Shown here in pieces: positions 36 to 202 of a DNA stretch of 1,292 nucleotides. The stretch is from NCBI RefSeq assembly GCF_003334355.1, contig NZ_QOWP01000090.1. The stretch is one strand, 5' to 3'. Under the pieces are notes generated by a model that was not told where the DNA came from, searched no databases, and saw only the letters and a program-made list of their open reading frames with translations. The first letter of the stretch is position 1, and each line of letters opens with the position of its first letter. A program made the translations under genes and the position numbers. The stretch comes from Escherichia coli. Its GTDB lineage: Bacteria; Pseudomonadota; Gammaproteobacteria; Enterobacterales; Enterobacteriaceae.

Positions 36-202
36 GTTCACAGATAAAACACTCTCCAGGAAACCCGGGGCGGTTCACAGAGACAGAATCAGCGATTCTG
101 GCGCACGCCCGCCGATGTGCGCCAGCGGAGTCGTGCGGCTTCGTGGTGAAAACGCCGGAGGGAGAAAGATATTTTCCCTGCGTGAATATCTCCGGTGAGC
201 CT

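Follow-up and report, generated by a model that had tools for sequence, protein, structure and literature searches.

An IS629/IS1203-type element apparently interrupting the tail tip assembly gene K of a lambda-like prophage in Escherichia coli

Features of the window and identity of its genes

The window, by which we mean the whole 1292-bp stretch of E. coli DNA that was analysed (contig QOWP01000090.1), carries the end of an insertion sequence (IS) followed by overlapping lambda-type tail tip assembly genes. Its main features are as follows.

Positions 1–77, plus strand: right end (last 77 bp) of an IS3-family element of the IS629/IS1203 type, matching the commonest right end in IMG/VR at 77 of 77 bases.
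Positions 1–35, plus strand: C-terminus of the transposase gene orfB, comprising its last 11 codons and the TGA stop (33–35) in frame 3 (...ASIGNDDLAA).
Positions 53–77, plus strand: right terminal inverted repeat (IRR) of the element, TCTCCAGGAAACCCGGGGCGGTTCA, ending in CA as is typical of the IS3 family.
Positions 77–817, plus strand: tail tip assembly gene K from codon 2 (ACA) to the stop TGA (815–817), by frame-2 translation.
Positions 715–1292, plus strand: 5' part of tail tip assembly gene I, running off the contig end, by PF06805 (Lambda_tail_I) and phage annotations.

The reading frame that follows the IS was assigned to K by its domains and its relatives. It encodes the domain pair that defines lambda K, namely Prok-JAB (JAMM; PF14464) at residues 4–98 (1.4e-13) and NlpC/P60 (PF00877) at residues 111–224 (7.3e-13), and the public protein has precomputed assignments to both families. 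The nucleotide sequence that runs from base 77 to the window end is 92–97% identical to those of phages 434, mEp332 and mEp460, and K is 97% identical to K of mEp332 and others. K and I overlap by 103 nt (715–817), as in the annotated relatives. When the complete window was compared with 50,697 phage records by megablast, 374 of them matched, and every match listed begins at base 77.

The 5' end of K was examined by comparison with intact genes. In phage 434 and mEp332, the L stop TAA is followed by ATCCC and then by K, which begins ATG ACA CAG/GAG ACA/GCA GAA TCA GCG ATT CTG. Among K starts sampled from IMG/VR, 68 of 121 read ATGACAGAGACAGAATCAGCGATTCT (exact ACAGAG), and this is also how the window reads from base 77 (ACAGAGACAG...). 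When the window is aligned to the intact relatives, homology starts at base 77 and their ATG lies opposite the window's TTC (74–76). The A at base 77 is shared: it closes the IS and opens codon 2 of K. The first-pass annotation, made from the letters alone, had described this region as an L-K junction with a canonical K start expected at TTC. The expected position of the start is borne out by the alignment, but the label is wrong: neither L directly upstream nor an ATG just after an L stop is present in the window, and IS sequence stands where the relatives have ...CAGTAAATCCCATG. The segment that had been singled out as a possible insert relative to other phages, bases 45–81, likewise has to be redrawn, as the inserted DNA spans bases 1–77 and continues beyond the contig start.

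Some further features of the tail genes were noted. At positions 98–125, 21 nt into K, the arms CTGGCGCAC and GTGCGCCAG form a perfect inverted repeat of 9 bp around a loop of 10 nt. These arms are incompletely kept in mEp332 and in E. coli 118UI, and the repeat has probably arisen incidentally from the coding sequence. The fold predicted for the 91 nt that surround this repeat and span the junction and the start of K (60–150) was no more stable than those of shuffled sequences (z = -0.97). The one terminator-like hairpin that was found is weak, on the minus strand and inside the terminal inverted repeat of the IS. In gene I, a 23-nt imperfect direct repeat with 74% identity, the copies lying 36 nt apart, spans 1031–1089 in a Gly/Ala-rich stretch (...VLGAAVMAVAIWMPGVGIMAS...).

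The identity of the first 77 bases was established by their recurrence elsewhere. They are identical over all 77 positions to 97 IS copies found in unrelated contexts in IMG/VR, and the other copies differ by 1–3 nt. The first 160 bases of the window matched about 34,000 places in 5,426 complete E. coli genomes, where the RefSeq labels read 'IS3 family transposase' or 'IS3-like element IS1203 family transposase'. A scan of IMG/VR with the last 24 bases of the element gave 120 loci, which together with loci fetched earlier supplied 117 distinct downstream flanks. Among these 117 right ends TGAGTTCACAGATAAAACACTCTCCAGGAAACCCGGGGCGGTTCA is essentially invariant and the sequence diverges after ...GGTTCA. 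Because 117 distinct flanks follow this point, we place the boundary of the IS there. Matches of some copies to the window run on to bases 94–115, and an element extending past base 77 was considered and rejected, since ranking among about 34,000 places picks out chance similarity of the flanks; the flank at one such locus, L004, is an instance (CAGGGATATGATCAGCATTC versus CAGAGACAGAATCAGCGATTC).

Complete copies supplied the rest of the element for comparison. Where both ends are present, the full-length IS is typically 1310 bp. The 11 transposase codons of the window exactly match the end of orfB in the complete copy carried by E. coli 118UI. The 296-aa product of that orfB scored 314.6 bits with the NCBIfam model NF033516 for the IS3 family transposase (cutoff 160); orfA of that copy scored 44.8 bits, and the RefSeq remark there is 'programmed frameshift'. 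In complete copies the left end is TGAACCGCCCCGGGAATCCTGGAGA, and 23 of 25 positions agree between it and the reverse complement of the IRR, TGAACCGCCCCGGGTTTCCTGGAGA. The inverted repeat present in the window is the right one only, a 25-bp sequence of the form 5'-TG...CA-3'. As judged from these sequence matches, bases 1–77 are IS DNA of the IS629/IS1203 type and not gene L.

Anatomy of the nine-base repeat

The window had drawn attention because of a short direct repeat that straddles the end of the IS.

Positions 36–44, plus strand: repeat copy 1, fixed internal IS sequence directly 3' of the transposase stop.
Positions 73–81, plus strand: repeat copy 2, a composite of GTTCA (73–77, the last 5 nt of the IS) and CAGA (78–81, nt 5–8 of K).

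Exact matching confirmed the perfect 9-bp repeat GTTCACAGA at these two positions, with the 28-bp spacer TAAAACACTCTCCAGGAAACCCGGGGCG between the copies; there is no further copy on either strand anywhere in the window. The first-pass annotation had judged its statistical support to be weak, and the shuffling results agree. Shuffling the window 2000 times with its dinucleotides preserved gave one or more exact 9-mer direct repeats spaced within 50 nt in 439 cases (22%), and a 9-mer direct repeat anywhere in the sequence in 98%. Besides this pair, ten perfect direct repeats of 9 bases and one of 11 are present in the window itself. The figure of '0 expected' for the repeat refers to that specific 9-mer only.

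The two copies differ in origin. Copy 1 is present, as GTTCACAGATAAAA, at the same place in 114 of the 117 IS right ends with distinct flanks. The pentamer GTTCA occurs twice in the IS, once internally and once at its terminus, and the sequence of intact relatives, ATGACAGAGACAGAATCAGCG, defines the K part of copy 2. Copy 2 thus arises because the K bases that follow the terminal GTTCA (CAGA) equal the four bases that follow the internal GTTCA. Among the other 117 right flanks, one starts with CAGA and three start with CAG, which is about the chance rate. A target-site duplication (TSD) consists of two target-derived copies that flank the insert, and the 9-mer pair is not of this kind. Since copy 1 is internal to the IS (114 of 117) and copy 2 takes five of its nine bases from the IS terminus, the 9-mer is neither a duplication nor a TSD. 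Homologues from many phages with both copies and the same spacer, which would have indicated ordinary conserved sequence, were not seen either; the phage matches listed lie wholly downstream of copy 1, and none has both copies. The repeat is a coincidence, is not statistically notable and has no function of its own.

Origin of the IS-K junction

We propose that an IS629/IS1203 element transposed into K of a lambda-like prophage, between nt 7 and 8 of the gene, and that this event produced both the odd junction and the missing ATG. We regard this explanation as almost certain. The contig would then begin within a copy of the element, the remainder of which would lie off the contig start. By landing after nt 7 of K, the IS would have displaced the ATG about 1.3 kb upstream and off the contig, and K would be intact from base 77/78 except for its ATG. 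One further feature may be a product of the insertion.

Positions 78–80, plus strand: CAG, presumed right-hand copy of a 3-bp TSD (K nt 5–7), the partner of which would lie at the unseen left junction.

The complete IS and the 3-bp CAG duplication would thus be expected at a left junction off the contig, which for a complete insertion with CAG as TSD would read ...CTTTCGCAGTAAATCCCATGACAG and then TGAACCGCCCCGGGAATCC.... Duplications of 3–4 bp were present at 20 of the 39 complete copies of the element that were examined. The other 19 of the 39 showed no 3–4 bp duplication shared by their two ends, for which recombination between IS copies could account.

An equivalent insertion was found in E. 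coli 118UI, the only match to a synthetic left-junction query among the complete E. coli genomes. In this finished genome, a complete 1310-bp IS lies between L and K and interrupts K at the same nucleotide (locus L003, 1760–3080). Its junctions read ...TTTATGACAC / TGAACCGCC...GGTTCA / CACAGACTGAATCAGCG, that is, ATGACAC/IS/CACAGAC, with both inverted repeats and CAC as TSD. The 118UI sequence is 93.8% identical to window positions 1–160, and all mismatches are in the K part, where the sequences differ from the third base after the IS. The L-K spacer of 118UI is the rarer ATCCCGGTTT variant. Because the K alleles and the L-K spacer differ, the two insertions in K are probably independent. Insertion at codon 3 of K was found in one of 5426 complete E. 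coli genomes, namely 118UI, and in a K allele different from that of the window. A separate observation was made in E. coli PNUSAE008512, an isolate from bull manure (locus L005, 1090–3324), where a copy of this IS has split an antirepressor gene; that gene sits, together with Arc-family genes, between a fragmented L and K. It is a different and unrelated insertion in the neighbourhood of the same tail genes.

The flanks of the element were examined for a preferred target. Among the 117 right flanks, G is found at +5 in 65 (56%) and C at +3 in 47 (40%); among 42 left flanks, C is found at -1 in 20 and at -5 in 17. The flanks show a weak, roughly symmetric, palindrome-like target bias. The same phosphodiester was used in two K alleles (CAG here and CAC in 118UI), and it is conceivable, although we consider it unlikely, that nt 5–7 of K form a sequence-determined hotspot for IS629/IS1203. 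A stronger proposal would give the 9-mer itself a mechanistic meaning, in that the IS selected a target resembling its own sequence (GTTCA-CAGA-like). Some IS3-family members are described as inserting beside sequences that resemble their own ends. Such a selection would fit the two apparently independent insertions at one K nucleotide in alleles that diverge by about 6% over window positions 1–160, and it would fit the weak right-flank bias, as both K sites have G at +5. The target before insertion, however, would have been ...ATGA-CAGA... without GTTCA, the GTTCA of copy 2 having been supplied by the IS itself. The flank in 118UI is CACA, and hence there is no 9-mer in that strain, and the rarity of CAGA and CAG among the other flanks shows no enrichment for the sequence of the internal copy. 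A published survey also concluded that IS629 has no sequence-based target, having detected none in a sample smaller than our 117 flanks (PMC3271280). Selection of an IS-like target is therefore very unlikely.

The remaining alternatives concern the repeat as a rearrangement and the contig as an artefact. One such suggestion, which follows the first-pass annotation, is that the ATG was destroyed and the L-K junction lengthened by about 37 bp when a short stretch was duplicated locally in tandem, or when an element inserted, was excised and left a footprint. Two perfect copies lying 37 nt apart and the lack of an ATG at the expected K start are what such an event would leave, and an insertion did indeed remove the ATG. 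The other parts of that suggestion fail, since copy 1 and the 28-nt spacer are unchanged in 114 of 117 unrelated IS contexts, the foreign DNA begins at base 1 rather than at base 45, the end of the IS is still present instead of having been excised, and the duplications made by IS629 are of 3–4 bp and not 9 bp, both in the copies examined here and in the literature (PMC3271280). We give this explanation an almost negligible probability. Alternatively, the junction might be an assembly chimera of a short-read draft contig and absent from the genome. The contig is only 1292 bp long, of which exactly the first 77 bp belong to a multicopy element, and the exact IS-K junction gave no match in the other collections searched, whether in IMG/VR with an exact or a degenerate pattern, in the JGI metagenomes or in the complete E. 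coli genomes. Against this, the IS ends precisely at its canonical terminal CA, and the finished 118UI genome has the complete IS, with a 3-bp duplication, at the identical position of K. A repeat stub of fixed length at a contig end would in addition be the normal behaviour of a graph assembler at a real repeat boundary, and 77 is a commonly used k-mer size. A chimeric junction is thus highly improbable, and transposition of the IS into K is retained as the explanation.

Consequences for K and comparison with known systems

The insertion would leave K without a start codon of its own, and two other codons bear on how the gene is annotated and perhaps translated.

Positions 44–46, plus strand: ATA, inside the IS, start of the public 257-aa 'C40 family peptidase' (gene 44–817 on QOWP01000090.1).
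Positions 218–220, plus strand: first internal in-frame ATG of the K frame, within the JAB domain, with a strong Shine-Dalgarno sequence (GAGGAG, 203–208) upstream.

The K frame has a stop at 20–22, after which there is no ATG, GTG or TTG before the GTG at 143. The public protein that starts at ATA is on record once (QOWP01000090.1, GCA_003334355.1); its first 11 residues are encoded by the IS and the rest by K. No Shine-Dalgarno sequence was found ahead of this ATA, and the public annotation of 118UI makes the same choice of an ATA within the IS (L003, 3044–3817). The choice looks driven by homology, the gene having lost its ATG, and ATA 44 is probably an annotation device rather than a real start. 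A 224-aa K with a GTG start is not on record. From its sequence context, ATG 218 is a possible candidate start, which would yield a truncated K of 199 aa without residues 1–47, the first half of the JAB domain. This ATG probably corresponds to the K start annotated in the classical lambda record. The annotation of K starts is inconsistent among lambdoid phages, with the ATG just after L used in phage 434 (14132) and a later start in mEp332.

Expression of K from within or across the IS was also considered. No promoter-like site was found in positions 1–300. A fusion of transposase and K by frameshifting was rejected as a candidate; the K frame is -1 to that of orfB, the stretch available for a shift is about four codons (from the stop at 20–22 to the stop at 33–35), and no slippery sequence is present in it. 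Full-length K is most likely lost or strongly reduced, and the prophage would then be unable to assemble tail tips unaided.

The event is already known in kind, being an ordinary disruption of a prophage gene by an ordinary IS, in this case in an ordinary lambda-type K. It carries little biological weight, as the inactivation of prophage genes by IS629/IS1203 is a frequent and well-documented event. Its value lies rather in annotation: the prophage contains a K gene without a start, and the peptidase listed for it is an IS-K chimera. It also serves as a caution that a short draft contig may open with some tens of bases of repeat stub that do not belong to the adjoining gene.

The element can be compared with IS629 as described in E. 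coli O157:H7, of which IS1203 is an isoform (PMC3271280). In O157:H7, 62% of the IS629 copies are in prophages (PMC3271280). TSDs of 3–4 bp were present at 21 of 47 IS629 sites in that survey and missing from the other 26, a share similar to the 19 of 39 found here (PMC3271280). With the IS629/IS1203 copies in lambdoid prophages of E. coli and Shigella, the window shares the right end, the 25-bp imperfect TG...CA repeats and the C-terminus of the transposase; complete copies are 1310 bp with orfA and orfB and an annotated programmed frameshift, whereas only the end is seen here. CAG at 78–80 is probably a TSD copy, and the 9-mer resembles a TSD in being a short direct repeat near an IS end. 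It differs from one in that both of its copies are on the same side of the IS, one of them internal to the element, and in its length of 9 bp as against 3–4 bp. With K of phages 434, mEp332 and mEp460, the window has in common the domain pair and the 103-nt overlap with I. In intact relatives the ATG of K follows the L stop by 4–10 nt, while in the window the TTC of the IS takes the place of the ATG and L is not adjacent. The element itself shows no difference from known IS629/IS1203, and only its insertion site, codon 3 of K, is uncommon.
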